64,000 nucleotides of DNA, taken from Escherichia coli. Lineage in GTDB: Bacteria; Pseudomonadota; Gammaproteobacteria; Enterobacterales; Enterobacteriaceae. Both the position numbers and the translations under genes were made by a program. The stretch's first letter is position 1; each line of letters starts with the position of its first letter. The notes below the pieces were generated by a model, which worked only from the letters and a program-made list of their open reading frames with translations, was not told the origin of the DNA and did no database searches. Below are positions 26,901 through 59,371 of the stretch, in pieces. The stretch is taken from NCBI RefSeq assembly GCF_041248615.1, contig NZ_CP158426.1; one strand, 5' to 3'.

Positions 26901-28349
26901 TTATTCTCCATGCTCATTTTTCTTCAGCTTGCGCATCAGAAGCCACATACGTACTGTCCTGACTTTTAAATCTTTATCAGAGACGGATTCCTTCACCAGA
27001 TCAGCATGATGCTGATAGCCATTAAAGAAGACGTTCAGCACAACGGCGCTAAGGGTTGCGAGCATAATGCCGCTATGCAGCAACGGTTGCAGTACGGCCG
27101 GTAACTTAGAAAAGAAATCGTGAGAGAGCGTCGGAGTCATGCCAACGCCGAGACTGATCGCCACAATATAGAGGTTGTAACGGTTGGTGGTGTAGTTACA
27201 GCGCGACAGAATTCGAATCCCTGTCGCCAGTACCATGCCGAACATCACCAGCCCAGCACCGCCCAGCACAAATTGCGGAATGGAGGCGACCAGCACCGCC
27301 ATTTTTGGCACCATGCCAAACAGGATTAATATAATTCCCGAAGAAATACACACCCAGCGGCTATGAACGCGCGTCACGCTAACCAGGCCAACGTTTTGTG
27401 AAAATGACGTGTGGGGGAAGCTGTTAAACGTTCCGCCTATCATTGTCCCTACGCCATCGACACGCAGCCCGCGAATAATATCGTGTGAAGAGAGTTTACG
27501 ACCGACTATTTCACCCAGTGCCAGGAACATCCCCATCGACTCGATAAACACGATGATTAACACGGCAGTCATGGTCAGAATGGAAACGGGATCGAAAATC
27601 GGCATACCAAATGACATCGGCGTGACAATCGCAAACCATGAAGCATCATGTAGCCCGGATAAATTGACTTCATTCATCATCCACGAAAGTAAAAAGCCAA
27701 ATACAATCCCCAGTAATACGGCGACGTTGGACATAAATCCTTTCGCATAGCGAGTAATGAGCAAGATAAAAATTAAGACAGCAAAGGAGATACCTAAATA
27801 AACGGGATTACCATATTGCGGATTTCCTTTACCTCCGGCGGCCCAGTCAATACCCACCTGAATGATGCTAAGCCCGATAGAAGTAATCACCACACCGGTA
27901 ACCAGTGGCGGGAATAAAGGCATCAAGCGACCGATAAGTGGCGCTAATAATGTGGTGATAAAACCCGCGGCGATAGTGGCACCAAATATCCCCAGCAGGC
28001 CGATATCCGGGTTCATCCCAATGGCTATCATTGGTGTTACAGCGGCGAAGGTCACCGACATAATCACCGGCAGGCGGATCCCCATAAAGCGGCCGATACC
28101 GATACATTGCAATAATGTGACGATCCCGCAGCAAAAGAGATCCGAGCTAATGAGCATCGCAATAGCTTCTTTTGAGAGGCCCAGTCGGTCGCCAATCATA
28201 AGAGGAACAGCGACTGCACCTGCGTACATGACAAGGACGTGTTGCAGACCGAGTATGATCAGCTTTCCTGGTGATAATATGCGGTCAACCTCATCAGTTG
28301 GGCGGTCTTGCCCAGAAGATGAGGGAAGTTGGGAATCTATGGCGCTCAT
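26901..28349 (-). CDS. uacT: uric acid:H+ symporter (NCS2/NAT family)
   Basis: ORF track 26901..28478; start refined to MSAIDSQLPSSSGQDRPTDE (482 aa). Confidence 0.9.
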   Translation of the reverse strand: MSAIDSQLPSSSGQDRPTDEVDRILSPGKLIILGLQHVLVMYAGAVAVPLMIGDRLGLSKEAIAMLISSDLFCCGIVTLLQCIGIGRFMGIRLPVIMSVTFAAVTPMIAIGMNPDIGLLGIFGATIAAGFITTLLAPLIGRLMPLFPPLVTGVVITSIGLSIIQVGIDWAAGGKGNPQYGNPVYLGISFAVLIFILLITRYAKGFMSNVAVLLGIVFGFLLSWMMNEVNLSGLHDASWFAIVTPMSFGMPIFDPVSILTMTAVLIIVFIESMGMFLALGEIVGRKLSSHDIIRGLRVDGVGTMIGGTFNSFPHTSFSQNVGLVSVTRVHSRWVCISSGIILILFGMVPKMAVLVASIPQFVLGGAGLVMFGMVLATGIRILSRCNYTTNRYNLYIVAISLGVGMTPTLSHDFFSKLPAVLQPLLHSGIMLATLSAVVLNVFFNGYQHHADLVKESVSDKDLKVRTVRMWLLMRKLKKNEHGE

Positions 28350-28784
28350 CAGTGTTTCTCCTTTCGCCCGCCAGAGTAAAAAGCAACCGTTTACGTTCAT
28401 GAAACTGTCTAAATACATGCTCGTGGAGTGCCAGTTTTTGCGAGGAAGGGGAGTTAGAGACAGGAATTGCGGAGGCAATCACATAATCGTGGTTAAACCA
28501 CGAAAATGAGAAGAGAACCTGACAATGGAATTATCTGTAATTTTCTCATATTGATATTTCATTAATCATTCTGGCATGTCGCACTCTCGCATTTAATCGT
28601 TTTTATCTGGATAGCATTCTTTTGATCGGCAATGTTGAAATAATGAAAGCTGCATAGATTGAGGGGCAATAATTTGAACTCAGTCGCAAAATTATAATTA
28701 AATCGGCCATGCTACCTAATATATGCCCATTTATTGCATCGCGAAATTTGAGAAGACATAACTCATTAAATGAAAGGGATGCAA

Positions 28785-30704
28785 ATGAATAAGTTTATCG
28801 CTGCTGAAGCTGCGGAATGTATAGGCTGTCATGCTTGTGAAATTGCCTGTGCGATGGCACATAATCAAGAAAACTGGCCGCTGAGTCACAGTGACTTTCG
28901 ACCACGTATCCACGTTGTAGGGAAAGGCCAGGCTGCGAATCCGGTGGCCTGCCATCACTGCAACAATGCCCCTTGCGTTACGGCTTGTCCGGTTAATGCT
29001 CTGACTTTCCAGCCCGATAGCGTACAACTGGACGAGCAAAAATGTATTGGTTGTAAAAGATGCGCAATCGCTTGCCCCTTTGGCGTCGTTGAGATGGTCG
29101 ATACGATTTCGCAGAAATGCGACCTTTGTAACCAGCGCAGTTCCGGCACGCAAGCCTGTATTGAAGTCTGTCCAACACAGGCGTTACGGCTGATGGACGA
29201 TAAAGGGTTGCAGCAGATAAAGGTGGCCCGCCAGCGCAAAACGGCAGCAGGAAAAGCGTCATCAGACGCTCAGCCATCTCGCAGTGCAGCGTTGCTCCCC
29301 GTTAACTCGCGTAAAGGCGCAGATAAAATTTCAGCGAGTGAACGGAAAACCCACTTTGGCGAAATCTATTGCGGGTTGGATCCACAACAAGCGACTTATG
29401 AGAGTGACCGCTGTGTTTATTGCGCCGAAAAAGCTAACTGCAACTGGCATTGCCCGCTGCATAACGCTATTCCGGATTACATCCGTCTGGTACAGGAAGG
29501 AAAGATTATTGAAGCGGCAGAACTTTGCCACCAGACCAGTTCCTTACCAGAAATCTGCGGCAGGGTATGCCCACAGGACCGTCTTTGTGAAGGCGCATGT
29601 ACTTTGAAAGATCACTCTGGCGCAGTCTCTATCGGGAATCTGGAACGCTACATCACCGATACCGCGCTGGCGATGGGCTGGCGTCCCGATGTCAGCAAAG
29701 TTGTTCCCCGTATCGAAAAAGTGGCGGTGATTGGCGCAGGGTCTGCAGGGTTAGGGTGTGCTGATATTCTGGCGCGCGCAGGAGTTCAGGTTGATGTCTT
29801 TGATCGCCATCCAGAAATTGGCGGTATGCTGACTTTTGGCATCCCTCCTTTCAAACTCGATAAAACGGTATTAAGCCAGCGGCGAGAGATATTCACCGCA
29901 ATGGGAATCGACTTTCATCTTAACTGTGAAATTGGCCGCGATATTACCTTTAGCGATTTAACTTCTGAATATGATGCAGTTTTCATCGGCGTGGGGACTT
30001 ACGGGATGATGCGAGCAGATCTGCCGCATGAAGATGCGCCCGGTGTCATTCAGGCTCTACCGTTCCTGACTGCCCATACCCGCCAGCTCATGGGATTGCC
30101 GGAGTCTAAAGAGTATCCGCTGACGGACGTGGAAGGTAAGCGAGTCGTGGTATTGGGCGGTGGCGATACGACAATGGATTGTTTGCGGACTTCCATCCGC
30201 CTCAATGCCGCCAGCGTGACCTGCGCGTATCGTCGTGATGAAGTCAGTATGCCGGGCTCGCGCAAAGAGGTGGTTAATGCGCGCGAGGAAGGTGTCGAGT
30301 TTCAGTTCAATGTTCAACCGCAATATATCGCTTGTGACGAAGATGGGCGTTTAACTGCGGTGGGCCTGATTCGTACCGCCATGGGTGAGCCGGGGCCGGA
30401 TGGTCGCCGTCGTCCTCGTCCGGTAGCGGGTTCAGAGTTTGAATTGCCCGCCGATGTTCTGATTATGGCCTTTGGTTTCCAGGCGCATGCCATGCCGTGG
30501 TTGCAGGGCAGCGGAATTAAACTCGATAAATGGGGCCTGATTCAAACCGGTGACGTCGGGTATTTACCTACCCAGACGCATCTGAAAAAAGTCTTTGCTG
30601 GTGGTGATGCAGTTCATGGCGCGGATCTGGTTGTCACTGCAATGGCCGCAGGAAGGCAGGCGGCGCGCGATATGTTAACTCTGTTTGATACGAAGGCATC
30701 GTGA
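28785..30704 (+). CDS. ygfT: fused 4Fe-4S ferredoxin / FAD-NAD(P)H oxidoreductase (GltD-like)
   Basis: ORF track 28770..30704; start chosen at [19 protein letters not shown] (639 aa) with SD aaaggga; multiple CxxCxxCxxxCP clusters. Confidence 0.88.
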
Positions 30705-31192
30705 TGAAATCGTTAATTATCGTTAATCCGGCTGACTGTATTGGCTGCCGTACTTGTGAAGTAGCCTGTGTGGTCGCTCACCCTTCAGAACAGGAGTTGA
30801 ATGCCGATGTCTTTTTACCCCGGCTGAAGGTACAGCGACTGGACAGCATCAGTGCGCCGGTGATGTGCCATCAGTGTGAAAACGCCCCTTGTGTTGGCGC
30901 TTGCCCCGTGGGGGCGCTGACGATGGGCGAGCAGGTGGTGCAGACCAATTCTGCCCGTTGTATTGGCTGTCAGAGTTGCGTCAGTGCGTGCCCGTTTGGA
31001 ATGATCACCATTCAGTCGTTGCCGGGGGATACCCGACAACAAATTGTGAAATGCGATCTCTGTGAACAGCGGGAAGAGGGGCCAGCCTGCGTTGAATCTT
31101 GCCCAACACAGGCGCTGCAGTTGCTTACTGAAAGAGAACTCAGGCGAGTCCGCCAGCAGCGTATTGTTGCCAGCGGTGAGAATCCTCTCTGA
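30704..31192 (+). CDS. ygfS: 4Fe-4S ferredoxin-type protein
   Basis: 162-aa [23 protein letters not shown]...; start overlaps the ygfT stop (TGATG). Confidence 0.9.
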
Positions 31193-31196
31193 AAGA

Positions 31197-31226
31197 AATC
31201 TCCGCGCTGAAAGGCGCGGAGAATCT
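31197..31226. terminator. bidirectional terminator hairpin between convergent ygfS and ghxQ
   Basis: perfect hairpin tctccgcgc-tgaaag-gcgcggaga. Confidence 0.7.
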
Positions 31227-31227: not shown

Positions 31228-32595
31228 TTAGATTGCCCAACCACCCGCGTAAAATGCGACCAGTGCGGCAGTAATGATCACCGTACCAATATTCAGCTTT
31301 TGCCATTCGCGTGCAAAGACGCGGCCTACGACCAGTGTCACAAAGCCCAGCATAATACCGGTAACGATATTACAAGTCAGAACGATGAACACGGCACACA
31401 CCAGGCCAGCCATAGCGTCAATAAAATCATTGAAATCCAGCTTCGAGACGTTACTTAACATCAGCAAACCTACGTACATCAGAGCGGGTGCAGTGGCGTA
31501 ACCAGGGATCAAAAATGACAGCGGTGATAAAAACAGAATTAACAGGAATAACGCCCCCACTACGGTTGCGGTTAAACCTGTTTTACCCCCGGCGGCGGTT
31601 CCTGCCGCTGATTCGATATAAACCGCTGCGGGCGCTGCGCCCACCAGGCCGGAGAATATTGAACTTACTGAGTCACTGGTCAGGGCTTTGCCGCCGTTGA
31701 TGATCTGGTTGTCTTTATCCAACAAATTCGCCTGACCGGCGACGGCACGGATGGTGCCAGTAGCGTCGAACACTGCGGTCATCACCAATGCCAGTACACT
31801 CGGAAGTACAGTTGGCTGGAGTGCACCCATAATATCGAGGCTGAAAATCAGAGACTTACCATCTTCGCCAGTCAGGCTTGGCATCGCCACCAGACCGTGG
31901 TATTTCACCGCTGGGTCAAAGATTAAGCCGATGATCGAAATTGCAATAATCACCAACAAGATCCCGCCGGGTACGCGACACTTCTCCAGGCCGAAGATGA
32001 CCGCCAGCCCCAGCAAGCTCATCATCACCGGGAAGGAGGTAAACGCACCGAGCGCCACTGGCAAGCCTTCAATCGGGTTTTTGATAACCATACCCACACC
32101 GTTAGCAGCAATCAGCAGCAGAAACAGCCCGATACCGATACCTGTACCGTGAGCGATACCCATCGGCAAATTACGTAAGATCCAGGTACGCACACCGGTT
32201 ACGGAAATGGCGGTGAAGATGACGCCCATCAGAAATACCGCGCCCAGTGCGACAGGAACGCTAATTTGTTGCCCGAGTACCAGACTGAATGCGGTAAACG
32301 CCGTCAAGGAAATCGCGCAACCAATCGCCATTGGCAAATTAGCCCATAATCCCATCAGCAACGAGCCGAAGCCCGCGACCAGACAGGTGGCAACAAACAC
32401 AGCTGCGGGAGGAAAACCTGCTTTGCCCAGCATTCCCGGAACGACGATAACGGAATAAACCATGGCCAGAAAGGTCGTTAAGCCAGCCAGTACTTCCTGA
32501 CGAACGGTACTGCCACGAGCGGTAATTTTAAAATAATTATCCAGCGCGCCCTGTGGCTTTGGTGCGTCCGGTGTTTGTAGGATGTCTCCAGACAT
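31228..32595 (-). CDS. ghxQ: guanine/hypoxanthine permease
   Basis: 455-aa [37 protein letters not shown]... Confidence 0.92.
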
Positions 32596-32630: not shown

Positions 32631-33950
32631 TTAGTTGCGTTCGTACACCAGACGACCATCAACGTAGGTGCGGTAGATCGAACGGTCATCGCCCAACGTC
32701 ATCATCACGAACAATTTGTCGACTAAAGAAACAGAGTTGTCATAGCGCAGCTGCTGTAGCGGAGTGGCGGTGGGTTCCATCACCACGAAATCAGCCTCTT
32801 TGCCAGGTAAAAAGTTGCCAATCAAATCGTCAAGGCCCAGAGATTTCGCTCCGCCGAGCGTGGCCAGGTAAAACGCTTCATATGCCGAGAGGCGATAGCC
32901 TTGTAATTGCAATACTTTGTAGGCTTCGTTCAGCGTTTGCAGCATGTTGAAAGTGGTTCCGGCACCGATATCCGTTCCCATGCCCACTTTAACTTTCTTC
33001 TGCCATGCTTTTTTCAAGTTGAATAAGCCGCTGCCGAGGTAAAGGTTGGAGGTCGGACAGAAAGCAATGCTGGATTTGGTTTCGCTGAGACGATCCCACT
33101 CTTTTTCTTCGAGATGGACGCAGTGAGCAAAGACACAGTTTTTACCGGTCAGGCCGTACTGATGGTAAACATCCAGATAACCATCATGGTCAGGATAAAG
33201 CGATTTCACCCAGGCAATTTCATCTTTGTTTTCACAGAGATGGGTATGTACCCACGTATCCGGATATTCTTCTTTCAGGCGTTGCGCCATCGCCATCTGT
33301 TCAGGAGATGAGGTCGGGGCGAAGCGTGGCGTAATCGCATATAGCAGACGACCATTTTTGTGCCAGCGTTCGATCAGTTCTTTGCTTTGGTGATAGCTGC
33401 TTTCGGCAGTGTCGAGCAGATAATCCGGTGCGTTGCGGTCCATCATCACCTTACCGGCAATCATACGCATATTGATATGACTGGCGGCTTCAAACAGCGC
33501 ATCAACAGATTGCGGATGAACAGTGCCAAACACCAGCGCCGTGGTGGTTCCGTTACGTAAAAGCTGCTTGATGAAGAACGCCGACATTTCGCGGGCGTAC
33601 TCTAAATCCTCATAACGACGTTCAGTAGGGAAGGTGTGTTTATTCAACCACTCCAGCAATTGCTCACCATAGGCCCCCACCATTTCACTTTGCGGATAAT
33701 GGATATGTGTATCGACAAAGCCCGGTACTATCAGTTTGCCGCGATAGTCGCGCACGCGAATGGTGTCAGGAATTTGATGCTTTCCGTTTTCCCATTCGCC
33801 AAACCATTCCACTTTTCCCTGTTTAATGAGTAATAAACCATCCTCAATAAACCGCAGCGCAGAGGCAATCTCTTCCGGGTTATCGATCGTACGGGTGACA
33901 TCAATAAAACTGCCTCGTACCGCTTTTAACGTGTGTTCTCCTGACATCAT
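32631..33950 (-). CDS. guaD: guanine deaminase
   Basis: ORF track 32631..34070; start refined to MMSGEHTLKAVRGSF (439 aa). Confidence 0.92.
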   Translation of the reverse strand: MMSGEHTLKAVRGSFIDVTRTIDNPEEIASALRFIEDGLLLIKQGKVEWFGEWENGKHQIPDTIRVRDYRGKLIVPGFVDTHIHYPQSEMVGAYGEQLLEWLNKHTFPTERRYEDLEYAREMSAFFIKQLLRNGTTTALVFGTVHPQSVDALFEAASHINMRMIAGKVMMDRNAPDYLLDTAESSYHQSKELIERWHKNGRLLYAITPRFAPTSSPEQMAMAQRLKEEYPDTWVHTHLCENKDEIAWVKSLYPDHDGYLDVYHQYGLTGKNCVFAHCVHLEEKEWDRLSETKSSIAFCPTSNLYLGSGLFNLKKAWQKKVKVGMGTDIGAGTTFNMLQTLNEAYKVLQLQGYRLSAYEAFYLATLGGAKSLGLDDLIGNFLPGKEADFVVMEPTATPLQQLRYDNSVSLVDKLFVMMTLGDDRSIYRTYVDGRLVYERN

Positions 33951-33964: not shown

Positions 33965-35365
33965 TTAATCCATCTCTTCCGCTGAGGTAATACCAGGCAG
34001 AACGTTTTCCTGTCGGTAGCCACCAGGGAGGATAATATTTAATAAAATCGTAGTTAACCCGCCGGCACAAATAGGGTTTTCAACTAATACATAAATAGAG
34101 GCTGGCAATATTTTAAAAATTTCGGGATCGTAGGAGACGCCAAGCCCTAAACCTAAAGAAGTGGCGACAATAAGTGTTTCACGGCGCTTTAAACCGTTGG
34201 TGATGATGATGCGAATCCCTGCGATGGCAATCATGGAAAACATCAACGTCATTGCGCCTCCCAGAACTGCCGAGGGAATGGTCGTGAAGAAGCCGCCAAT
34301 CATCGGAAATAAGCCGAGGATAACCAGCATTACCGCGATGGTTCGCCCGACATAACGTGAAGCGACGCCAGTCATCTGAATAACCCCATTATTTTGCGCA
34401 AACGTGGTTAATGGTAATGAACCGACAGCGGAGGCGATAACAGAAACCAGACCATCTGCCAGCACGCCGCCTTTCAGCCGGGACTGATACTCTTCCCCCT
34501 GAATGGGGCGGCGGGAAACCATTGCCGTGGCGGTGATATCGCCGACTGCTTCCAGCACGCTAAGCAGATAAATCGTGCCAACCACCAGGAACTGATGGAA
34601 GCTAAAACTAAAGCCGTATTTGAACGGATGCGGGATGGTGATTAACGGCAAATTGCGCATACTGCTGAAATCCACCATGCCCAGGCATAACGATGCGATA
34701 TAGCCGACACATAGCCCAATGGCGATCCCTCCCATGCGTAGCAACGGACTGCGACAGCAGTTAAAGCCGATCACCACAATTAAAACCAATAAACCAACGC
34801 CGAGATGTTCGTAATTGCCGAACGTACCGCTGCTTTTGGCTGCAAATCCTCCACCAAAATCGATAATGCCGACTTTAATCAGGCTTAAGCCGATCATCAG
34901 TACCACAATACCGCTGACGGTAGGCGTAATAACCCGACGTAAATAGGGCAAGATAAATGAAGATCCGACAACCAGAAATGCGCCAACGAAGGAGACGCCG
35001 AGAAGCGACGACATGATTAACTCTTCGTGAAAACCGTCGCTTTTCATGCTGCTGCCCAGCGCAATCATGACCGTAACAAATGAAAAATTGACTGACTGAA
35101 TTGAGAGTAGGCCAGAACCGACGATGCCGTAGCGGTTTACTTGTAACCAGGTACCAATACCAGAGGCGATCATCGCCATAGAAACAAGATAGGCAGTTGT
35201 TTCAGCGGAAAGCTGTAAGGCCGCACCCACGATTAACGCGGGGGTTACCATCGGAACGAAAATTGCCAACAGATGGGTAATGGCACCAACGAGAGCCTGA
35301 TGAAAGGGAGGGCGATCCTCCAGTTCAAATATAAGGTCAGAACCTGCATGGTTTATATCAGACAT
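33965..35365 (-). CDS. xanQ: xanthine permease
   Basis: ORF track 33965..35422; start refined to MSDINHAGSDLIFELEDRPP (466 aa). Confidence 0.92.
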   Translation of the reverse strand: MSDINHAGSDLIFELEDRPPFHQALVGAITHLLAIFVPMVTPALIVGAALQLSAETTAYLVSMAMIASGIGTWLQVNRYGIVGSGLLSIQSVNFSFVTVMIALGSSMKSDGFHEELIMSSLLGVSFVGAFLVVGSSFILPYLRRVITPTVSGIVVLMIGLSLIKVGIIDFGGGFAAKSSGTFGNYEHLGVGLLVLIVVIGFNCCRSPLLRMGGIAIGLCVGYIASLCLGMVDFSSMRNLPLITIPHPFKYGFSFSFHQFLVVGTIYLLSVLEAVGDITATAMVSRRPIQGEEYQSRLKGGVLADGLVSVIASAVGSLPLTTFAQNNGVIQMTGVASRYVGRTIAVMLVILGLFPMIGGFFTTIPSAVLGGAMTLMFSMIAIAGIRIIITNGLKRRETLIVATSLGLGLGVSYDPEIFKILPASIYVLVENPICAGGLTTILLNIILPGGYRQENVLPGITSAEEMD

Positions 35366-47109: not shown

Positions 47110-47317
47110 TGGCCGGATGGTATTACCCACCCGGCCTGAGACTGATGACAAACGCCAAATTGCCTGATGCGCTACGCTTATCAGGCCTACAAGTGCATTG
47201 CAATCTATTGAATTTGCGATGTTTTGTAGGACGGATAAGGCGCTCGCGCCGCATCCGGCATCAACAAAGCGCACTTACTTGACAATCTTTGGCCGGATGG
47301 TATTACCCACCCGGCCT
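47110..47317. repeat. BIME-like unit: two inverted REP elements (47161-47190, 47226-47260) flanked by a 28-bp perfect direct repeat
   Basis: tggccggatggtattacccacccggcct at 47110-47137 and again at 47290-47317; REP consensus between (gcctgatgcgctacgcttatcaggcctac / gtaggacggataaggcgctcgcgccgcatccggca). Confidence 0.75.
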
Positions 47318-49740: not shown

Positions 49741-50952
49741 TTACTCTGTTGCCAGCCAGCTTAACGGGATTGCAGCGTACATCGCGGCACAGGTCACCAG
49801 GTGAGATTTCCAGGTTTTTTCGTTAGGTGCATGCGCTTCAGGTTCTTTACCCGGGCCAAAGCCGATCACCGGAATGCCGTGACGGCCCATGATAGATACG
49901 CCGTTAGTTGAGAAGGTCCACTTATCAACAACCGGCGCTTTGCCAAACAGCCCTTCGTAGGCATTCACCAGTGCTTTAACGGTGAAGTGATCTTCTTCCA
50001 CTTTCCAGGTCGGGAAGTAGCATTCGGTTGGGTAAACCAGGCCAGTCCAGGACGGACGGTCGTAGTTGTACATAGAAACAACCGCGTTAGCTTTCTGTAC
50101 TGCAGGCAGGGCGCGGATTTCGTCCAGCGCGCCTTCCCAGGTTTCGCCCCAGGTCAGACGACGGTCGATTGAAACTGCGCAGCTGTCTGCTACAGCGCAA
50201 CGGCTTGGGGATGTGAAGAAGATTTCAGAAACGGTGAGGGTGCCTTTGCCGAGGAATTCGTCATAACCCAGACGTTGGGAGAGTTCTTGTAATTCGCCAA
50301 GAATCGGACCCATTTTGAAAATGGCGTTATCACCGCGTTCTGGTGCAGAACCGTGGCAGCTAACACCCTGAACATCAATACGAATTTCCATACGACCGCG
50401 CTGACCACGGTATACCTGGCAGTCGGTTGGTTCGGTACTGACCACAAATTCCGGGCGAATGCCGGATTGTTCAATAATGTACTGCCAGCACAGACCGTCG
50501 CAGTCTTCTTCCTGCACCGTACCGGTAACCAGCAGGGTATATTCATCTTCCAGACCGAGGTCTTTAATGATTTTACCGGCATAAACCATAGAGGCCATGC
50601 CACCTTCCTGGTCGGAAGTACCGCGACCACCAATCAGTTCATCAGTTTCCATGCCTTCGTACGGATCGAAGTCCCAGTTTTTGATGTTGCCAATGCCGAC
50701 GGTATCGATATGAGCGTCCATTGCCACCAGACGCGGGCCGTGGCCGATATAACCGAGAACGTTGCCCATCGGGTCGATTTCAACTTTATCGAAGCCGACT
50801 TTTTCCATCTCTTCTTTAATACGATGTACTACGCGTTTCTCGTCGCAGCTTTCACTGGGAATAGCAACCATGTCGCGCAGGAAGCGAGTCATATCCGCCT
50901 GGTAATCTTTTGCTTTTTCAAGAATCAGTTTGAATGGAATATTCTTAGCCAT
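49741..50952 (-). CDS. ygeY: M20-family peptidase/deacylase YgeY
   Basis: 403-aa [38 protein letters not shown]... Confidence 0.92.
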
Positions 50953-51009: not shown

Positions 51010-52206
51010 TTAAGGTGCTACAGCGTGTTTGCCTTCCCAGACAACTTCGCGGTAGTGCTTCACGTCGGTGTCGCCTTCAGTGCTGATAACCAGCACCACG
51101 GCATCTTTGTTCAGCGCCAGTTTTTCCATCAGGCTTTGACGTTGCGGGTGATAATGAACCGCTGCGAGAACGCCCAAACCGACAGCGCCGGATTCACCGG
51201 AGATGATGCGCGGGTCGTTGCCGTACGGATTACCCAGCACGCGCATACCTAATGCGGCAACGCTGTCCTGGCAGGAGATGAATTGGGTGGCGCAGTTACG
51301 TAGGATTTCCCAGCCCAGCGGGTTAGGTTCGCCACAGGCCAGGCCTGCCATGATGGTGGCCATATCACCGCCAACGTTGACGATGTCGCCTTTGACGCCG
51401 GAGCGATAAATACAGTCAGCTTTGTCAGGTTCAACAATAATGCTGTGCAGATTTTGCGGGCTATAGACGTCGACCAGATAACCCAGCACACCACCGGCCA
51501 TTGCTCCGACACCGGCTTGCAGCAGAACGTGCGTCGGGGTTACGCCCATTTCACGCATTTGCTCGACGGCTTCATCTGCCAGGGTTGCGTAGCCTTGCAT
51601 GATCCAGGTTGGGATTTTGGTGTAACCTTCCCATGCCGTGTCCTGTACCACTTCCCAGCCGTGCTGCTGCGCGTGTTGCATGGTCAGGCGAACGGTATCG
51701 TCATAGTTCATATCCGTGACGATGCACTCGGCACCGAGGTTCAGAATGGCGTCAACGCGTTCCTGAGCAGAACCTTTCGGCATGTAAATCACCGCATTCT
51801 GTCCGAGTTGCTGTGCTGCCCACGCCACACCGCGCCCGTGGTTGCCGTCGGTGGTGGTCGCGAAAGTCATTTTTTCGCCGATGGCATTTTTCAGGTGCTC
51901 AAATGACAGCGTTTCGATATCAAGATGATATTTTTCACACAATAATTGAGCGATGGCGTACGCACCGCCAAGCATTTTGAAGGCGTTCAGACCGAATCGT
52001 TTTGATTCGTCTTTGACGAGAATTTTCTTCACACCAAAAAGGTTTGCGAGATCGTCCAGCGCACAAAGCGGTGTTGGGCGATAACCAGCTATTTTCTGGT
52101 GGAACTGGCGCGCCAGTTTGGCCTGGCTTTGCGAAAAGAGCGGTGATGTTTCGCCGTTGAAAAATTTGTTATCGGCGATATCAATCTTCAATGAGAAAAC
52201 GGACAT
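51010..52206 (-). CDS. ygeX: diaminopropionate ammonia-lyase (PLP-dependent)
   Basis: 398-aa ORF MSVFSLKIDIADNKFFNGETSPLFS... Confidence 0.92.
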   Translation of the reverse strand: MSVFSLKIDIADNKFFNGETSPLFSQSQAKLARQFHQKIAGYRPTPLCALDDLANLFGVKKILVKDESKRFGLNAFKMLGGAYAIAQLLCEKYHLDIETLSFEHLKNAIGEKMTFATTTDGNHGRGVAWAAQQLGQNAVIYMPKGSAQERVDAILNLGAECIVTDMNYDDTVRLTMQHAQQHGWEVVQDTAWEGYTKIPTWIMQGYATLADEAVEQMREMGVTPTHVLLQAGVGAMAGGVLGYLVDVYSPQNLHSIIVEPDKADCIYRSGVKGDIVNVGGDMATIMAGLACGEPNPLGWEILRNCATQFISCQDSVAALGMRVLGNPYGNDPRIISGESGAVGLGVLAAVHYHPQRQSLMEKLALNKDAVVLVISTEGDTDVKHYREVVWEGKHAVAP

Positions 52207-52263: not shown

Positions 52264-53454
52264 TTATTTCACGCGTTCTTGCGCTTCTTTCAGCAGTTGC
52301 TCGAGCAGTGCACCTGGTTTGGCGTATTTACGGGACAGGATCATCGCGGCGATGATATAAGGCTTCCAGCTGGCTTCTTTGTAGGTAGCGATACGGTATT
52401 TTTCGAATACGCCTTCAGTCACTTCACCTTCTTTACAGGATACGCCGCTGATATCAGCTGGCAGGCAGTGCATGTACAGGGCTTCGCCATCACGGGTCAG
52501 TTCCATCATCTCTTCAGTACAATGCCAGTCTTTGTGTTGCGCGTTCTGTGCCAGACACTGTTTTTCCAGTGCTTTTAAGCCTTCGTGATCGTTCGCACGC
52601 AGCAATTCAGTACGCTCTTCCATCACTTTGTAAGGTGCCCATGACTTCGGATAAACGATGTCTGCGTCTTTGAAGGCTTCTTCCATGCTGGTGACCTGAC
52701 GGAAGCTACCACCGGAGGCTTTAGCATTGTTTTTCGCCACTTCAACCACATCCGGGATCAGGTCGTAGCCTTCCGGATGGGCCAGGGTGACATCCATACC
52801 GAAGCGAGTCATCAGACCGATGATGCCTTGTGGTACAGAGAGCGGTTTGCCATAGCTTGGAGAGTAGGCCCAGGTCATGGCGATTTTTTTACCTTTCAGG
52901 TTTTCCAGTGAACCAAAGTGTTCACGTAACCACGCGAGGTCAGCCATTGACTGAGTCGGGTGGTCAATATCGCATTGCAGGTTCACTAAAGCCGGACGCT
53001 GTGGCAGTACACCCTGCTTGTAACCGTCATCAAGTGCAGCGCCAACTTCACGCATATAGGCGTTGCCTGCGCCCAGATACATATCGTCGCGAATACCAAT
53101 AGCGTCGGCGCAGAAGGAGATCATATTGGCGGTTTCACGCACGGTTTCGCCGTGAGCGATTTGTGATTTGCCTTCGTCGAGATCTTGTTGTGCAAGGCCG
53201 AGCAGGTTAAGCGCGGAAGCATAAGAGAAGCGGGTACGGGTGGAGTTGTCGCGGAATACGGAAATACCTAATCCACTATTAAAGACTTTGGTTGAGATGT
53301 TTTCAGCACGCAGTGCTTTTAATGCTGCGGCAACGTCCAGTACTTGTTTCAGTTCATCTGGCGTCTGTTCCCACGTTAACAAAAAATCTTTCTCGTGAAG
53401 GTGAGAGGTCAGCGAATTGATATCCTTAATCAGCTCATTAACAGTTTTCATCAT
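52264..53454 (-). CDS. ygeW: carbamoyltransferase-like protein YgeW
   Basis: 396-aa ORF MMKTVNELIKDINSLTSHLHEKDFLLTWEQ... Confidence 0.92.
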   Translation of the reverse strand: MMKTVNELIKDINSLTSHLHEKDFLLTWEQTPDELKQVLDVAAALKALRAENISTKVFNSGLGISVFRDNSTRTRFSYASALNLLGLAQQDLDEGKSQIAHGETVRETANMISFCADAIGIRDDMYLGAGNAYMREVGAALDDGYKQGVLPQRPALVNLQCDIDHPTQSMADLAWLREHFGSLENLKGKKIAMTWAYSPSYGKPLSVPQGIIGLMTRFGMDVTLAHPEGYDLIPDVVEVAKNNAKASGGSFRQVTSMEEAFKDADIVYPKSWAPYKVMEERTELLRANDHEGLKALEKQCLAQNAQHKDWHCTEEMMELTRDGEALYMHCLPADISGVSCKEGEVTEGVFEKYRIATYKEASWKPYIIAAMILSRKYAKPGALLEQLLKEAQERVK

Positions 53455-53560: not shown

Positions 53561-53929
53561 GAATTATCCGCGCGGCTGAAAAAGACTAATTTGACGGATA
53601 ATGTGTGGGGTTGATCACAAATTGATGCCAGCTTCTGGTTGTTTGTAAAATACGAAAACGTTTGGCTTTTTTTATCACGTTATTTATTTGCTGCTAAGTA
53701 TCAGAAATAAGATAAAGGGGCAGGCTATCTCTCTTCAGTTTGATAAACTCACCGCCGTAATTCTCATATTGATATAGAAATGTGATATCTCTTCCATAAT
53801 TTCATTAGAAAATGATAAAAATCTTATGTTTTTATCAAAGCCAATTTCGCCTGAGTTAATATCATCATGATCTGTGAACCATCAACGTCTTCAATGATCG
53901 ACTTTTAAGTAAGTCTGGAAGGTAAAGCT

Positions 53930-55708
53930 ATGGAGCTTGCTACTACGCAGTCAGTATTGATGCAAATTCAACCGACAATTCAGCGTTTTGCCAGAATGCT
54001 TGCCAGCGTTTTGCAGCTTGAGGTTGAGATCGTTGATGAAAACTTGTGTCGCGTTGCCGGAACGGGCGCGTATGGGAAGTTTCATGGTCGCCAGTTGAGC
54101 GGCAACTCACGCCTGCTCCGCCACGTCCTGGAAACGAAAACTGAAAAAGTTGTGACACAGTCTCGCTTCGATCCCCTTTGCGAAGGTTGCGATAGTAAAG
54201 AAAATTGCCGCGAAAAAGCATTTCTGGGTACGCCTGTCATTTTACAGGGTCGTTGTGTTGGGGTGATAAGTTTGATTGCCGTTACCCACGAGCAACAAGA
54301 GCATATCAGTGATAATTTACGCGAATTTTCTGATTATGTTCGCCATATATCCACCATTTTTGTTTCGAAACTTCTGGAGGAACAGGGGCCAGGAGATAAC
54401 ATCAGTAAAATATTTGCGACCATGATCGATAATATGGATCAGGGCGTATTAGTTGTAGATGATGAAAATCGGGTTCAGTTTGTTAATCAGACTGCCTTAA
54501 AAACACTTGGTGTTGTGCAAAATAATATTATTGGGAAACCTATCCGTTTCAGACCATTAACATTTGAGAGTAATTTTACCCATGGACATATGCAGCATAT
54601 TGTTTCATGGGACGATAAAAGTGAATTAATCATTGGTCAATTGCATAACATTCAGGGCCGACAATTATTTTTAATGGCGTTTCACCAATCGCATACCAGT
54701 TTTTCTGTAGCAAATGCACCTGATGAACCGCATATTGAACAATTGGTTGGCGAGTGCCGTGTTATGCGGCAATTAAAACGACTCATTAGCCGTATTGCAC
54801 CCAGCCCATCCAGCGTTATGGTGGTTGGTGAAAGCGGCACGGGTAAAGAAGTCGTCGCCCGTGCAATCCATAAGTTGAGCGGAAGACGGAATAAACCCTT
54901 TATTGCTATCAACTGTGCCGCGATTCCGGAGCAGCTTCTGGAGAGCGAACTGTTCGGTTATGTTAAAGGTGCATTTACTGGCGCTTCTGCCAACGGTAAA
55001 ACAGGGTTGATTCAGGCGGCGAATACGGGCACGCTGTTTCTCGATGAAATAGGTGATATGCCATTAATGTTGCAGGCTAAATTACTGCGCGCTATTGAGG
55101 CACGTGAAATTCTGCCGATTGGTGCCAGTAGCCCAATACAAGTCGACATTCGCATCATTTCTGCAACTAATCAGAATTTGGCCCAGTTCATTGCCGAAGG
55201 TAAATTCCGCGAAGATCTCTTCTACCGACTTAATGTTATCCCGATAACTCTGCCACCGCTGCGTGAACGTCAGGAAGATATTGAACTATTGGTGCATTAC
55301 TTTTTACATCTGCATACCCGTCGTCTGGGATCGGTTTATCCTGGCATTGCTCCCGATGTCGTCGAAATATTGCGTAAGCATCGTTGGCCCGGAAACCTGC
55401 GCGAGTTAAGCAATTTGATGGAATATCTGGTTAACGTGGTTCCTTCAGGTGAAGTTATCGACAGCACGCTATTGCCGCCAAATCTGCTGAATAATGGCAC
55501 AACGGAGCAAAGTGATGTAACAGAGGTCAGTGAGGCGCACCTGTCACTCGATGATGCGGGCGGCACGGCGCTGGAGGAGATGGAAAAGCAAATGATCCGC
55601 GAGGCGCTTTCACGTCATAACAGCAAGAAGCAAGTTGCTGATGAACTGGGCATCGGCATTGCTACGCTCTATCGCAAGATTAAGAAATATGAGTTGTTAA
55701 ACACATAA
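53930..55708 (+). CDS. ygeV: sigma-54-dependent transcriptional regulator (bacterial enhancer-binding protein)
   Basis: 592-aa ORF with AAA+ sigma-54 interaction domain (GESGTGKE, GAFTGA motifs) and C-terminal HTH. Confidence 0.93.
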   Translation: MELATTQSVLMQIQPTIQRFARMLASVLQLEVEIVDENLCRVAGTGAYGKFHGRQLSGNSRLLRHVLETKTEKVVTQSRFDPLCEGCDSKENCREKAFLGTPVILQGRCVGVISLIAVTHEQQEHISDNLREFSDYVRHISTIFVSKLLEEQGPGDNISKIFATMIDNMDQGVLVVDDENRVQFVNQTALKTLGVVQNNIIGKPIRFRPLTFESNFTHGHMQHIVSWDDKSELIIGQLHNIQGRQLFLMAFHQSHTSFSVANAPDEPHIEQLVGECRVMRQLKRLISRIAPSPSSVMVVGESGTGKEVVARAIHKLSGRRNKPFIAINCAAIPEQLLESELFGYVKGAFTGASANGKTGLIQAANTGTLFLDEIGDMPLMLQAKLLRAIEAREILPIGASSPIQVDIRIISATNQNLAQFIAEGKFREDLFYRLNVIPITLPPLRERQEDIELLVHYFLHLHTRRLGSVYPGIAPDVVEILRKHRWPGNLRELSNLMEYLVNVVPSGEVIDSTLLPPNLLNNGTTEQSDVTEVSEAHLSLDDAGGTALEEMEKQMIREALSRHNSKKQVADELGIGIATLYRKIKKYELLNT

Positions 55709-55718
55709 CCTCAGTGAA

Positions 55719-55745
55719 TCCGGCCTGAATTCAGGCCGGATATCC
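55719..55745. terminator. bidirectional terminator between convergent ygeV and xdhC
   Basis: perfect hairpin tccggcctga-at-tcaggccgga. Confidence 0.7.
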
Positions 55746-55747
55746 TT

Positions 55748-56227
55748 TTACTTCGTTTTCTCGCAATCCAGAACTGTATTTACAATCATCTGATACCCCG
55801 TGCAGCGACAAAGATTTCCCGCCAGTCCGCGACGAATTTCCGTAATGGTTAATGGCTTCTCGCGTGGTTTCGCCAGCATTGCCGTGGTAGCCATAATCAG
55901 GCCAGGCGTACAAAACCCGCACTGCACTGCGCCGGATTTCGCATAAGCCTGCTGAACATGAGAAAGTTTTCCGCCTTTCGCTTCACCTTCCAGCGTGCGG
56001 ATCTCTTTTCCTTCAGCCCAGGCGGCAAGGTATAAGCAACTGTCTATTGCTGTGCCGTCGACCAACACCGTACAGGCACCACATTCACCCACGCAGCACC
56101 CTTGTTTGACACTTAGCAGTCCTTGTTCGCGGAGTAATTCCGAGAGCGGCGTGCCTGGTGCGGCGTGAAGCTGAAAAGGCATCCCGTTAATGGTGCATTC
56201 GATGGTAATTGTTTCGCTGTGATTCAT
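55748..56227 (-). CDS. xdhC: xanthine dehydrogenase Fe-S subunit (2Fe-2S)
   Basis: 159-aa ORF with ferredoxin-type cysteine clusters ([17 protein letters not shown]). Confidence 0.93.
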
Positions 56228-57102
56228 TGCAATTTTCCCCCCGCCGCGGCGACGGCTTCGCTAATCACTTTTTTGGTCATCGTCTGGATGAGATGCAGAC
56301 GAAACTCTTTACTGGCCCGCCATGAAGAACGCGGGGCGACATCTTGCAGGACAGATTCGCTGATAGCTTCCAGCGTTTGCAGGTTTAATGGCGCATTTTG
56401 TGCAGTCTGTTCGGCATGTTGGCAGCGAATCGGCGTTGGCGCGGCAACACCAAATGCCAGGCGTAATTCGCTGAAATTGCCGTTATCCAGTCGGCAATGT
56501 GCGGCGCAGCCAATCGTTGAAATATCCATTGCGTCGCGCATGGCATATTTAAAATGCGCGCTGCCCGCGTGTTCTTTCGGCTGTGGCGGAAAATGAAAGG
56601 CGACGAGGATTTCGTCATGCTCAAGAGACACTTTGCCCGGCCCGGTGTGAAAGCCATTAATCGGGACGAAACGAACACCGCGCGGGGAGTGGATCTCCAG
56701 TTTCGCGTCATAAATTAGCGTTGGCGTGGCAGAATCTGCGCTGGTGGCACCGTTGCAAATATTTCCACCGTAGGTAGCGACGTTACGGATCTGCGGTCCA
56801 GCAATGGACGTGGCCGCAGCACATAACGCCGGGAGATGACGTTGAGTTATAGGATCTTCTATTAGCTGGGTAAATGTCGTTGCAGAGCCGATACGTAGCG
56901 AGCCATCTTCCGCCAGCGTAATTCCCCGCAGCTCCGCCAGATTATGAATATCAACAATATGGCGATAACGGTCATTGTGATGGTGGAGCTGAATCAGTAC
57001 GTCAGTGCCACCGGCGAGCAGTTTGGCCTGCGGGTTGTCAGCCAGCAGGTTGATGGCATCGGCAAGGGTTGCTGCGCGATGGTAAGAAGCAAAATCAAAC
57101 AT
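56224..57102 (-). CDS. xdhB: xanthine dehydrogenase FAD-binding subunit
   Basis: 292-aa [37 protein letters not shown]... Confidence 0.93.
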
Positions 57103-57112
57103 GATGTTATCC

Positions 57113-59371
57113 TCAAATCAATCCTGCCAGATGGAACTCTTCATATAACCGTTTTGGCGTCAGCGGCAGTGTATTGATTGCAACACCGGTAGCCATCTTC
57201 ACCGCGTTACGAATAGCAGCGGCAACAGGAATTATTGGTGGCTCACCCAGTGACTTATGTCCGTATGCGGATTGCGGCTCATTGATTTCGACGAACGCGC
57301 TTTCCAGTTGTGGCAGATCCGGCATGGTCGGCATTTTGTAATCCAGCAGATTGGGGTTACGGACCACGCCGCTTTTAGCATCGATGATCATCTCTTCAAA
57401 TAGCGCCCAGCCAATGCCCATTCCCATTCCGCCGTGTACCTGACCTTCTGCCAGCAGTGGATTAAGAATATGCCCTGAATCATGAACGTTGAGGATGCGG
57501 TTGATGGTGACTTTGCACAGCGCAATATCGACCGTCAGATCAACAAAGGTACAGCCAAACGCCGGTGGGTTAGTGGTGGTTTTGATGGAGCTTTCAGCAG
57601 AGAGCTGCCCGCCGCGTTCAGGGTGGTAGAAAGCGTCCATCGCCAAATCTTTTAACGACATTAACGGCTCTTCCGGTCGTTCAACCAGCACGATATGGCC
57701 TTTTATCAGGGTCAGATTCATCGCTGACTGATGTAGCATGACTGCGGCGTGAGCGATGATTTTCTCTTTTAATAATAGTGCCGCACTGCGCAGCGCAGGC
57801 GCGGCAACATAGCTCTGGCGTGAGGCAAATGCGCCGGGATCGAACGGCGTAACGTCGGTATCTTGAGTTGAAATAACGCGAACGTCGCTGACCGGAACCC
57901 CCACGGTTTCTGCCACCATTTGCGAGAAGACGGTGTCGGCACCCTGACCGATTTCCGTCGCGCCGCTTTGCACGTTGATGGTTCCATCCTGATTCATCAG
58001 AAGGCGCGCGCCTGCTATTTCTACGCCGACAGGCCAGGTGTTAGAGGTGTAGCTAAAACAGGCGATGCCAACGCCGCGGCGCAAATTGCCTTGCTGGTTC
58101 TGGCATTCTGCACGGCGTTTTTCCCATTCAAAGATTTTCCGGCCTTTTTCAAGACACTCCGGCAACCCTGCGCTGTAAATACGTTTGCCCGTGAGCGGAT
58201 TAGCATCTCCTTCGCGGGCGGCGTTGCGTAAACGAATTTCAACAGGATCAATACCTAACGCTGTCGCGGCGTCATCAAGCATAGACTCAACGGCAAATAC
58301 GACTTGTGGCGCGCCATAACCACGCATCGCACCAGCCGAGGGGAGGTTGGTATAGCAGGTCTTTGAACTGTAAGCGTAGGCACAACGAGGATAAAGGTAA
58401 GCGACTTTATTCCCCCCCGCAGAAGCGATGGAGTGCCCGTGAGATGCATAAGCGCCGGTGTTAGACAGAACATCCAGACTATAACCTTTCAATGTTCCGT
58501 CGCGGTTCACGCCCATTTGCCCGTCAATGGTAAAAGCGTGGCGGGTACGGGTTGCGAGGAAACACTCTTCACGGCTAAGGGAAACTTTCACCGGAATGCC
58601 GCCAAGCTTGCTGGTCAGGAATGCCGCCATTGGCTCTTCCAGTACATCCTGTTTATTACCAAAACCGCCACCGACAAATGGTTTGATGACTCGTACGCAT
58701 GACCAGGGAATATCCAGCGCCTGACCAACCACGCGGCGAACAATGTGCGGGATCTGGGTGCTGGAAACGATGGTAATTCGCGAGTCATCCTCCATCCACG
58801 CCAGCGATGTTACGCTTTCCATGTGACAATGTTGAATAACGGGGGTCTGATAGTGCCCCTGTACCTGGTAGTCGGCGGCATCGATTGTTTGTTGGACATT
58901 ACCCGTCGACATCGTGCTTTGTTTCAGTAAATTGCCACCGTTATGGATTGGTGCAGCGTCTTCTGCCAGCGCCGCTTCTGGCGTGGTGATAACGGGTAAT
59001 TCTTGCCACTCAATGCTGACCAATTGCGCCGCTTTTTCTGCCGTGAGTTCATCGCGGGCCACGACGATGGCAACGGCGTCACCATGATGACGAACATGGC
59101 GAGTTAGCAGTGCGCGATCGGCGGTATCGCGCTTGTTTTCGTCAAGTGTCCAGGCATGCCCAGCTGTAGCGAATGGAATATCAGGCACATCTTCCCAGGT
59201 AAAAATCGCCAGTACGCCCGGCAAACTTCTGGCTTGTTCATCATTAATACTTACGGCATAACCATGTGCGATAGGGCTACGTACATATTTCGCATAACAC
59301 ATGCCCGCCATAACATAATCGTCAGTATATCGTGCCCGCCCGGTGACCTTAGCAATGGCATCGACGCGCAT
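57113..59371 (-). CDS. xdhA: xanthine dehydrogenase molybdenum-binding subunit
   Basis: ORF track 57113..59410; start chosen at MRVDAIAKVTGRARYTDDY (752 aa); an upstream in-frame ATG at 59410 with a stronger SD is an alternative. Confidence 0.9.
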   Translation of the reverse strand: MRVDAIAKVTGRARYTDDYVMAGMCYAKYVRSPIAHGYAVSINDEQARSLPGVLAIFTWEDVPDIPFATAGHAWTLDENKRDTADRALLTRHVRHHGDAVAIVVARDELTAEKAAQLVSIEWQELPVITTPEAALAEDAAPIHNGGNLLKQSTMSTGNVQQTIDAADYQVQGHYQTPVIQHCHMESVTSLAWMEDDSRITIVSSTQIPHIVRRVVGQALDIPWSCVRVIKPFVGGGFGNKQDVLEEPMAAFLTSKLGGIPVKVSLSREECFLATRTRHAFTIDGQMGVNRDGTLKGYSLDVLSNTGAYASHGHSIASAGGNKVAYLYPRCAYAYSSKTCYTNLPSAGAMRGYGAPQVVFAVESMLDDAATALGIDPVEIRLRNAAREGDANPLTGKRIYSAGLPECLEKGRKIFEWEKRRAECQNQQGNLRRGVGIACFSYTSNTWPVGVEIAGARLLMNQDGTINVQSGATEIGQGADTVFSQMVAETVGVPVSDVRVISTQDTDVTPFDPGAFASRQSYVAAPALRSAALLLKEKIIAHAAVMLHQSAMNLTLIKGHIVLVERPEEPLMSLKDLAMDAFYHPERGGQLSAESSIKTTTNPPAFGCTFVDLTVDIALCKVTINRILNVHDSGHILNPLLAEGQVHGGMGMGIGWALFEEMIIDAKSGVVRNPNLLDYKMPTMPDLPQLESAFVEINEPQSAYGHKSLGEPPIIPVAAAIRNAVKMATGVAINTLPLTPKRLYEEFHLAGLI

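Follow-up and report, generated by a model that had tools for sequence, protein, structure and literature searches.

The stretch of DNA analyzed here (64,000 nucleotides of Escherichia coli contig NZ_CP158426.1, assembly GCF_041248615.1; hereafter the window) contains, between positions 26901 and 59410, 22 RefSeq-annotated genes that extend from the urate transporter gene uacT to the xanthine dehydrogenase gene xdhA. Their order is uacT, ygfT, ygfS, ghxQ, guaD, xanQ, xdhD, ygfM, ssnA, ygfK, and mocA, followed by yqeC, yqeB, yqeA/arcC, hyuA, ygeY, ygeX/dpaL, ygeW, ygeV, xdhC, xdhB, and xdhA. We assign a probability of roughly 0.9 to the reading that these genes are the E. coli purine/urate catabolic regulon (K-12 b2866-b2888), complete and, as judged from sequence, apparently functional in this strain. 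The cluster is already known, and the window adds no new system; it holds the standard version, intact in a clinical isolate. The E. coli isolate NRZ14408 (NZ_LT599825.1) is 100% identical to the window, base for base, across positions 11901-61900.

An earlier, sequence-only reading had described the interval from uacT to xdhA as intact, with no frameshift or insertion sequence (IS), and this description was confirmed. Each of the 22 coding sequences spans a whole number of codons, begins with a proper start codon, ends with a proper stop codon, and contains no stop in between. When positions 26001-60600 were aligned with K-12 MG1655, a single 34.6-kb block with 99.7% identity was obtained, in which the same 22 genes have the same order and orientation. 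The differences consist of 99 mismatches and two 1-bp gaps (26100 and 26766), and because both gaps fall outside the cluster, no frameshift, indel, or IS is present within it. Fifteen of the proteins are the same as in K-12, apart in some cases from where the annotation places the start codon, and the 12 amino acid (aa) substitutions are distributed over YgfT (six), YgeV (three), XanQ, HyuA, and XdhA (one each). Every named product scored above the curated cut-off of its NCBIfam family except GhxQ, which matched no NCBIfam model and is identical to its K-12 counterpart, and XanQ, which passes the NCS2 superfamily model alone and differs from K-12 at one residue (A439T). The gene names given in the sequence-only reading, including the marker trio yqeB-yqeC-mocA (TIGR03309, TIGR03172, and TIGR03310), agree with these assignments; ygeV lies inside the interval and had not been named. 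The genes for enzymes and transporters are as follows.

26901-28349, minus strand: uacT, urate:H+ symporter of the NCS2 family (482 aa, identical to K-12; TIGR03173, 509.8 bits against a cut-off of 414)
31228-32595, minus strand: ghxQ, guanine/hypoxanthine permease (identical to K-12)
32631-33947, minus strand: guaD, guanine deaminase (identical to K-12; NF006679, 738 bits)
33965-35365, minus strand: xanQ, xanthine permease (intact; A439T)
35530-38400, minus strand: xdhD, molybdenum subunit (identical to K-12; TIGR03313, 2122.8 bits; Glu606 present)
38397-39176, minus strand: ygfM, flavin adenine dinucleotide (FAD) subunit and partner of XdhD (identical to K-12; TIGR03312, 489.7 bits; ygfM and xdhD overlap by ATGA)
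39227-40555, minus strand: ssnA, ring-opening amidohydrolase (identical to K-12; TIGR03314, 737.9 bits; 2 nt from ygfK)
40558-43656, minus strand: ygfK, flavin/Fe-S 2,8-dioxopurine reductase (identical to K-12; TIGR03315, 1778.7 bits; Pfam domains Fer4_20, Pyr_redox_2, and Fer4)
47323-48255, minus strand: yqeA/arcC, carbamate kinase that makes ATP (above the NCBIfam cut-off; identical to K-12)
48303-49688, minus strand: hyuA, lower pathway (above the NCBIfam cut-off; I142M relative to K-12)
49741-50952, minus strand: ygeY, lower pathway (above the NCBIfam cut-off; identical to K-12)
51010-52206, minus strand: ygeX/dpaL, lower pathway (above the NCBIfam cut-off; identical to K-12)
52264-53451, minus strand: ygeW, lower pathway (above the NCBIfam cut-off; identical to K-12)
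55748-56227, minus strand: xdhC, xanthine dehydrogenase subunit (identical to K-12; NF007387, 341.9 bits)
56224-57102, minus strand: xdhB, xanthine dehydrogenase subunit (identical to K-12; NF007427, 534.2 bits)
57113-59410, minus strand: xdhA, xanthine dehydrogenase subunit (V449I relative to K-12; NF007426, 1485.8 bits)

Every feature that defines a cluster for reductive urate degradation by way of 2,8-dioxopurine and that can be examined in sequence is found here. With enzymes from E. coli K-12, the whole route has been reconstituted in vitro (Li et al. 2025, PMC12507026; Liu et al. 2025, 10.1101/2025.04.24.650524), and because the core proteins are identical to those of K-12, apart from the single substitution in HyuA, the K-12 biochemistry should apply to this cluster. 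Purified XdhD, together with a co-purifying protein of ~30 kDa taken to be YgfM, converts urate to 2,8-dioxopurine with NADH. YgfK and SsnA then convert 2,8-dioxopurine to ureidomethyl-hydantoin, YgfK reducing the pyrimidine ring and SsnA opening it, after which HyuA opens the hydantoin to give 2,3-diureidopropionate. The 2-ureido group is phosphorolysed by YgeW to carbamoyl phosphate, from which the carbamate kinase YqeA makes ATP; YgeY takes off the 3-ureido group, YgeX forms pyruvate and ammonia from 2,3-diaminopropionate, and the two enzymes together convert albizziin to pyruvate. The phenotypes of xdhA, xdhD, and ygfK deletions fit these enzyme assignments (PMC12507026). Summed over the published steps, urate and four reducing equivalents yield pyruvate, four ammonia, two CO2, and one ATP. 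Anaerobic degradation of urate to pyruvate or acetate has been shown for E. coli MG1655 and Nissle (literature including PMC12507026).

The remaining genes of this list supply substrate. UacT, XanQ, and GhxQ import urate, xanthine, and guanine/hypoxanthine, respectively; GuaD converts guanine to xanthine; and XdhABC, for which the molybdenum-binding, FAD-binding, and 2Fe-2S subunits are all encoded, each above its NCBIfam cut-off, interconverts xanthine and urate. GuaD, XdhABC, and the three permeases thus feed guanine, hypoxanthine, xanthine, and urate into the route.

The annotated start of xdhA differs from that of K-12, RefSeq placing it at 59410 (765 aa) and the K-12 annotation at the ATG at 59371 (752 aa), 39 nt apart; the latter is the coordinate at which the sequence-only reading had ended the cluster. 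The RefSeq start is preceded by a GAGGGG Shine-Dalgarno sequence 7 nt upstream, the NF007426 alignment begins at residue 5 of the longer form, and on these grounds the longer form looks better supported. The annotated starts of ygeW and guaD are also one Met apart from those of K-12.

The cluster is widespread in the species. Among 5426 complete E. coli genomes, 5155 (95%, a coarse figure based on coverage of cluster halves) carry each half of the cluster at a single place with a coverage of 80% or more, so the intact state is the rule in E. coli and is not unusual; interrupted copies occur, as in CP025851, where IS100 lies inside ygeV. Comparison with SaT040, which is roughly 3% divergent and in which all 22 genes have the same length, revealed 744 synonymous and 102 non-synonymous differences. 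The ratio of non-synonymous to synonymous substitution rates (dN/dS) is 0.040 over the 22 genes and ranges from 0 (ygeW, ygeX, and ygeY) to 0.2 (yqeC). Purifying selection of this strength argues that the genes are in regular use and are not a cryptic remnant. Recent horizontal acquisition was rejected as an origin, the G+C content being 50.7% in the cluster and 50.8% in the window.

A scan for related loci with YgeV returned chiefly generic AAA+ sigma-54 activators and three usable loci (L007, L008, and L009); orthologous loci in other genera were reached instead by way of YqeC homologues. Gene order around yqeC is retained in Citrobacter and Yokenella, and in Klebsiella aerogenes synteny is retained except for an absent xdhD-ghxQ block. 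At the K. aerogenes locus (L088, 4558-4692), ygfK-ssnA runs directly into ygfS-ygfT-uacT, and xdhD, ygfM, xanQ, guaD, and ghxQ are missing from that position. In this organism the first enzyme of the pathway must therefore be encoded elsewhere or be missing.

The regulatory features of the cluster comprise one regulator gene, four sigma-54 promoter elements, two cyclic AMP receptor protein (CRP) sites, and a set of candidate enhancer sites.

53930-55708, plus strand: ygeV, sigma-54 enhancer-binding protein (Pfam Sigma54_activat, E 2e-70; HTH_8, E 3e-13)
59466-59482, minus strand: xdhA sigma-54 -24/-12 element CTGGCGTAAATCTTGCC, an exact match to motif OS29 from chromatin immunoprecipitation sequencing (ChIP-seq; PMC4591121)
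53545-53561, minus strand: ygeW sigma-54 -24/-12 element CTGGCACACTTATTGTT, an exact match to ChIP-seq motif OS30, conserved in five genera
43729-43745, minus strand: ygfK sigma-54 -24/-12 element GTGGTGCGATTGTTGCT, an exact match to ChIP-seq motif OS31, invariant in four genera
28722-28738, plus strand: weak ygfT sigma-54 element TATGCCCATTTATTGCA, one mismatch to the low-scoring ChIP-seq motif OS32
43808-43823: perfect CRP consensus TGTGAATGAACTCACA between the candidate enhancer site and the ygfK promoter, arms invariant in four genera
53604-53619: CRP-like site TGTGATCAACCCCACA upstream of ygeW, one mismatch, arms conserved
43914-43926: candidate YgeV site at ygfK, perfect palindrome TATCATTATGATA, arms invariant and spacer variable in four genera
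53762-53774: candidate YgeV site 1 at ygeW, TCTCATATTGATA, 223 nt from the -12 element, invariant in five genera
53860-53872: candidate YgeV site 2 at ygeW, TATCATCATGATC, 321 nt from the -12 element, partly conserved
59579-59613: candidate YgeV site pair at xdhA, consisting of the 12-mer CTCATATTGATA (59580-59591, minus strand) and AATCAATGTGATA (59601-59613)
28544-28556: candidate YgeV site in the uacT/ygfT divergent intergenic region, palindrome match TCTCATATTGATA

A scan of the window with the sigma-54 consensus gave 47 matches where 45 were expected, which is no better than chance. Because such a scan is uninformative alone, promoters were placed only by the published ChIP-seq motifs. 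The CRP sites and three of the sigma-54 motifs (xdhA, ygeW, and ygfK) have the same sequence in K-12, and the weak ygfT element differs by one base. Expression of the genes is induced anaerobically by urate and repressed by glucose (PMC12507026 and mutant literature), a native Crp site in the ygeW intergenic region is mentioned in PMC12507026, and the YgeV iModulon has as members xdhABC, ygeWXY, hyuA, ygfK, ssnA, ygfM, xdhD, ygfT, and uacT. In the scheme that we favor, YgeV would activate the four sigma-54 promoters (xdhA, ygeW, ygfK, and ygfT), and the CRP sites at ygfK and ygeW would account for the glucose repression. Upstream of uacT, a sigma-54-like element TGGCACTCCACGAGCA (28418-28433, minus strand) with GG-N10-GC spacing lies 69 nt from the start codon and is identical in K-12 and SaT040; uacT belongs to the YgeV iModulon and has no reported ChIP-seq peak.

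YgeV contains a weak match to GAF, a PAS domain, an AAA+ domain with GAFTGA at residue 347, and a helix-turn-helix (HTH) of the Fis type. A search for sequences shared by the regions it might control identified the exact 12-mer CTCATATTGATA, which has three copies in the 64 kb, confined to the uacT/ygfT, ygeV/ygeW, and xdhA upstream regions; 0.24 matches would be expected in 64 kb even if one mismatch were allowed. The 12-mer is part of a palindrome, TATCA-N3-TGATA (full form TTATCA-N3-TGATAA). The four promoter intergenic regions, 1648 nt in total, contain five copies of this palindrome with at most one mismatch, where 0.10 would be expected, and none of 2000 dinucleotide shuffles reached five; the other 62 kb of the window contain two matches only. 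The palindrome centers lie ~120-320 nt upstream of the -12 elements, and most predicted enhancer sites are located 100-250 nt from their promoter (Nie et al. 2019, PMC6615313).

The palindromes were then compared among genera, using E. coli, Citrobacter, Yokenella, and K. aerogenes for the ygfK promoter and, in addition, Enterobacter sp. Bisph1 for the ygeW promoter. In both alignments, the palindrome arms do not vary, the three bases between them and most of the surroundings do, and the other conserved islands are the CRP arms and the sigma-54 elements. The two ygeW sites are 223 and 320 nt from the -12 element in Enterobacter sp. Bisph1 and 223 and 321 nt from it in E. coli. Upstream of ygfK, the blocks TTTTGAGAAA and GAGTGATTTTAATTCTCATT (43830-43900; alignment columns 79-148) are also invariant in the four genera and might be extra YgeV half-sites or an integration host factor (IHF) site.

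A further comparison is provided by the DioR regulon described by Nie et al. (2019), in which an enhancer-binding protein is encoded beside dpaL/ygeW/ygfK/ssnA/yqeBC/xdhABC operons with sigma-54 promoters and for which the function was entered as 'Unknown' in 2019. The predicted DioR enhancer motif, ATTTATCA-N3-TGATAA, lies upstream of sigma-54 promoters, and a predicted site from C. botulinum, ATTTATCATAATGATAAGG (PMC6615313), shares its core, TTATCATAATGATAAGG, with the E. coli ygfK site. A clostridial YgeV homologue with 38% identity adjoins purine genes and has the same palindromes; the ~38% figure refers to this one homologue and not to a protein named DioR by Nie et al. Unlike the DioR regulon, the E. 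coli cluster has added CRP sites, and the DioR sites are likewise predictions. Because the palindromes are enriched, conserved across genera, and similar to the predicted DioR motif, we propose them as candidate YgeV enhancer sites, with YgeV binding TTATCA-N3-TGATAA 120-320 nt upstream of its sigma-54 promoters. YgeV may be the enterobacterial counterpart of clostridial DioR, with the same operator, a possibility that we hold only tentatively. We found no description of a YgeV operator for E. coli in the literature examined.

Two genes on the plus strand encode proteins that may deliver electrons to the pathway.

28785-30704, plus strand: ygfT (uacF), annotated as a formate-dependent urate utilisation protein (NF009451, 1496.6 bits against a cut-off of 1154)
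30704-31192, plus strand: ygfS, HydN-like 4Fe-4S ferredoxin, with a one-base overlap with ygfT

In YgfT, a HydN-like 4Fe-4S ferredoxin domain at the N terminus is joined to a GltD-like NAD(P)H/FAD domain, and the protein carries its six substitutions relative to K-12. The TGATG overlap reported in the sequence-only reading was found at the ygfT/ygfS junction, ATCGTGATGAAATCG (also GTGATGAAA), where the TGA stop (30702-30704) and the ATG start (30704-30706) share one A. According to papers that cite Iwadate and Kato (2019), formate-dependent use of urate requires YgfT/YgfS, which may transfer electrons from formate dehydrogenase to NADP+ or urate. In the scheme favored here, YgfT-YgfS would supply formate-derived electrons to both reductive steps.

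Three further genes are associated with cofactor maturation.

43978-44556, minus strand: mocA, molybdenum cofactor cytidylyltransferase (identical to K-12; TIGR03310, 214.2 bits against a cut-off of 186)
44659-45429, plus strand: yqeC, selenium-cofactor maturation marker (TIGR03172, 240.9 bits, above the cut-off)
45477-47102, plus strand: yqeB, selenium-cofactor maturation marker (TIGR03309, 417 bits, above the cut-off)

The markers of the selenium-cofactor trait defined by Haft and Self (2008), YqeB, YqeC, and MocA/YgfJ, are thus present and adjoin ygfK, ssnA, ygfM, and xdhD. MocA would provide the cytidine-dinucleotide form of the molybdenum cofactor, and YqeB and YqeC may mature a labile selenium form of it. 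The gene selD is absent from the 64-kb window; E. coli carries it elsewhere in the genome. An in-frame TGA encoding selenocysteine is excluded because none of the genes has an internal stop codon. In the structure model of YqeC, a SIMIBI P-loop nucleoside triphosphatase (NTPase) fold is seen. YqeB is composed of an XdhC-like N-terminal half (residues 12-247) and an EF2563-type C-terminal domain, whose model (predicted local distance difference test, pLDDT, 92) contains a Rossmann-like subdomain with a GAGDIASG loop, a biotinyl/lipoyl-like barrel-sandwich subdomain, and a long terminal helix; comparison of this model with the PDB gave zero whole-domain matches. The C-terminal domain (46278-47099) also exists as a stand-alone protein of the EF2563 family, ~270 aa in length, in Firmicutes such as Moorella, and EF2563 proteins are 54-60% identical to the E. 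coli YqeB domain, which is unusually high across phyla.

In clostridia, the selenium link has been examined directly: DOPDH of C. sporogenes purified from a selD mutant was inactive (10.1101/2025.04.24.650524), and growth of C. difficile on xanthine and urate needs selD and yqeB, with yqeC dispensable (Johnstone and Self 2024). It is possible, and we hold the idea only tentatively at rather less than even odds, that E. coli XdhD-YgfM, and perhaps XdhABC, carry a labile selenium cofactor installed by YqeC and YqeB. If this were the case, YqeC would be a metal-centre-maturing SIMIBI NTPase like UreG, HypB, and CooC, in which the invariant His-Glu-Pro-Cys motif would bear the selenium, and YqeB would join a molybdenum-cofactor chaperone of the XdhC type to the EF2563 domain. 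Through this locus, the last uncharacterised route by which selenium is used in biology would then become tractable to genetics.

The sequence-only reading had characterized the locus as a cryptic purine-salvage and selenium-dependent hydroxylase cluster with incompletely defined biochemistry, a view that we consider very unlikely in the form that the biochemistry is largely undefined. In its favor, the selenium markers YqeB and YqeC are present, and the RefSeq/NCBIfam names remain vague ('putative aminohydrolase SsnA', 'selenium metabolism-linked hydrolase'). A salvage role for XdhABC was reportedly documented by Xi, Schneider and Reitzer in 2000, to go by the title of their paper. The term salvage can accordingly be kept for XdhABC only, as the core is catabolic and energy-yielding. 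The term cryptic is misleading in view of urate induction, glucose repression, and a dN/dS of 0.04, which argues for regular use. As to the biochemistry, the core route was worked out in 2023-2025 and is genetically supported in E. coli, and the description as partly defined continues to fit YgfT/YgfS, the chemistry of YqeB/YqeC, the YgeV ligand, and the need for selenium. An older annotation, in which YgfK, YgfM, and XdhD form a selenate reductase and the cluster serves selenium metabolism and not purine catabolism, survives in the name 'putative selenate reductase subunit YgfK' and in the models Se_sel_red_Mo and Se_sel_red_FAD (TIGR03313, TIGR03312, and TIGR03315). This annotation is extremely improbable: purified XdhD-YgfM acts on urate and YgfK with SsnA on 2,8-dioxopurine, the xdhD and ygfK deletion phenotypes fit purine activities, and the neighboring permeases, GuaD, HyuA, and YgeW/X/Y make sense for purines only.

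A different alternative is that the cluster is intact yet its regulation impaired, substitutions in YgeV either silencing the regulon or rendering it constitutive. The ygeV gene differs from K-12 at three nucleotides (54084, 54249, and 54382), all non-synonymous (L52H, D107G, and D151E). The substitutions lie in the sensor region and are derived; the positions they affect are conserved in Citrobacter, Yokenella, and other E. coli, and two of these positions are conserved in Klebsiella as well. Within the population, the substitutions form a nested series, D151E being common, L52H being shared with TUM9803, and D107G being found in this record only, among 5187 genomes. The AAA+, GAFTGA, and HTH parts of YgeV are unchanged, however, and three substitutions are too few for a statistical case, so that impaired regulation appears unlikely. 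Several points nonetheless weigh against a complete and functional catabolic regulon with the control and cofactors outlined above. Function in this strain is inferred from sequence identity, the sensor substitutions in YgeV could alter induction of the regulon in this lineage, and binding of YgeV to the palindromes is a prediction. At ygfT, the sigma-54 element is a weak one, with one mismatch in this sequence. The role of YgfT/YgfS is known second-hand, through citations. Selenium dependence is shown for clostridia and not for E. coli XdhD or XdhA, and Li et al. obtained active XdhD-YgfM with selenium unmentioned (PMC12507026). With these points taken into account, the purine/urate catabolic regulon remains our reading of the cluster.

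Comparison with other known systems places the E. coli cluster as one version of a wider pathway. The C. sporogenes and C. difficile clusters share a molybdenum hydroxylase that forms 2,8-dioxopurine, reductive dearomatisation, SsnA, HyuA, YgeY, and YgeX, and the YqeB/YqeC/SelD trait accompanies them (Liu et al. 2025; Li et al. 2025; Johnstone and Self 2024). NADH-linked XdhD-YgfM and YgfK serve in E. coli; C. difficile has no YgfM, has UacX in place of YgfK, and uses the hydrolase UacY in place of YgeW/YqeA (PMC12507026). The Pyd pathway is similar in its sequence of ring reduction, amidohydrolase opening, and ureido cleavage, with YgfK/SsnA analogous to PydA/PydB (PMC12507026), and YgfK has the dihydropyrimidine dehydrogenase domains Fer4_20 and Pyr_redox_2. 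In contrast to the Pyd pathway, the purine substrate in E. coli is first converted to 2,8-dioxopurine, and the route handles two rings and two ureido groups, one of which conserves energy as carbamoyl phosphate.

Gut bacteria with this locus reduce the urate of their host, an effect relevant to gout and hyperuricaemia; engineered E. coli Nissle over-expressing the locus lowered serum urate in mice (PMC12507026). To this, the present analysis makes modest additions, namely the candidate YgeV operator, which could guide promoter engineering, the fold hypotheses for YqeC and the YqeB C-terminal domain, and the unusual sensor substitutions in YgeV. What interest the locus retains concerns the maturation of the selenium cofactor and the YgeV operator.

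Scans for sigma-70 promoters and terminators gave counts near the shuffle expectation, and only intergenic hairpins were retained.

31199-31222: terminator-like hairpin between the convergent genes ygfS and ghxQ
47110-47317: terminator hairpin between the convergent genes yqeB and yqeA, a 28-bp hairpin present twice (47110-47137 and 47290-47317)
55718-55741: terminator-like hairpin between the convergent genes ygeV and xdhC

The duplicated yqeB/yqeA hairpins flank a 152-bp bacterial interspersed mosaic element (BIME) of two inverted repetitive extragenic palindromic (REP) sequences; O157:H7 and many other strains have a single hairpin and are 180 bp shorter here. Relative to K-12, idi has 47 single-nucleotide polymorphisms (SNPs) per kb, uacT 13, and ygfT 11 (26104-31192), and the density from ygfS to actS is 0-2/kb. 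The drop from ygfS onward suggests a breakpoint of recombination close to the 3' end of ygfT and, for the cluster's left end, an ancestry different from that of the rest.

An Rfam scan of the whole window at the gathering threshold yielded only 6S RNA, a Sib RNA, and tRNA-Gly, none inside the cluster. The left flank contains the Sib antitoxin RNA with the ibsC toxin gene (2874-3024) and the 6S RNA gene ssrS (3673-3856), as expected for this region. On the right, beyond the tRNA-Gly gene glyU (60733-64000 and further; locus L005, 1334-6121), the K-12 ETT2 remnant ygeQ-ygeF is absent, and a small island replaces it. This island encodes a hypothetical open reading frame (ORF), a YecR-family lipoprotein, and a 183-aa serine recombinase (62443-62994, minus strand). 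Past the recombinase gene, outside the window on its right, lie ~2.5 kb of 31-38% G+C with no ORF of at least 70 aa and no annotation, followed by IS1; this AT-rich stretch contains short direct and inverted repeats and is at least 80% present in 38 of the 5426 genomes.

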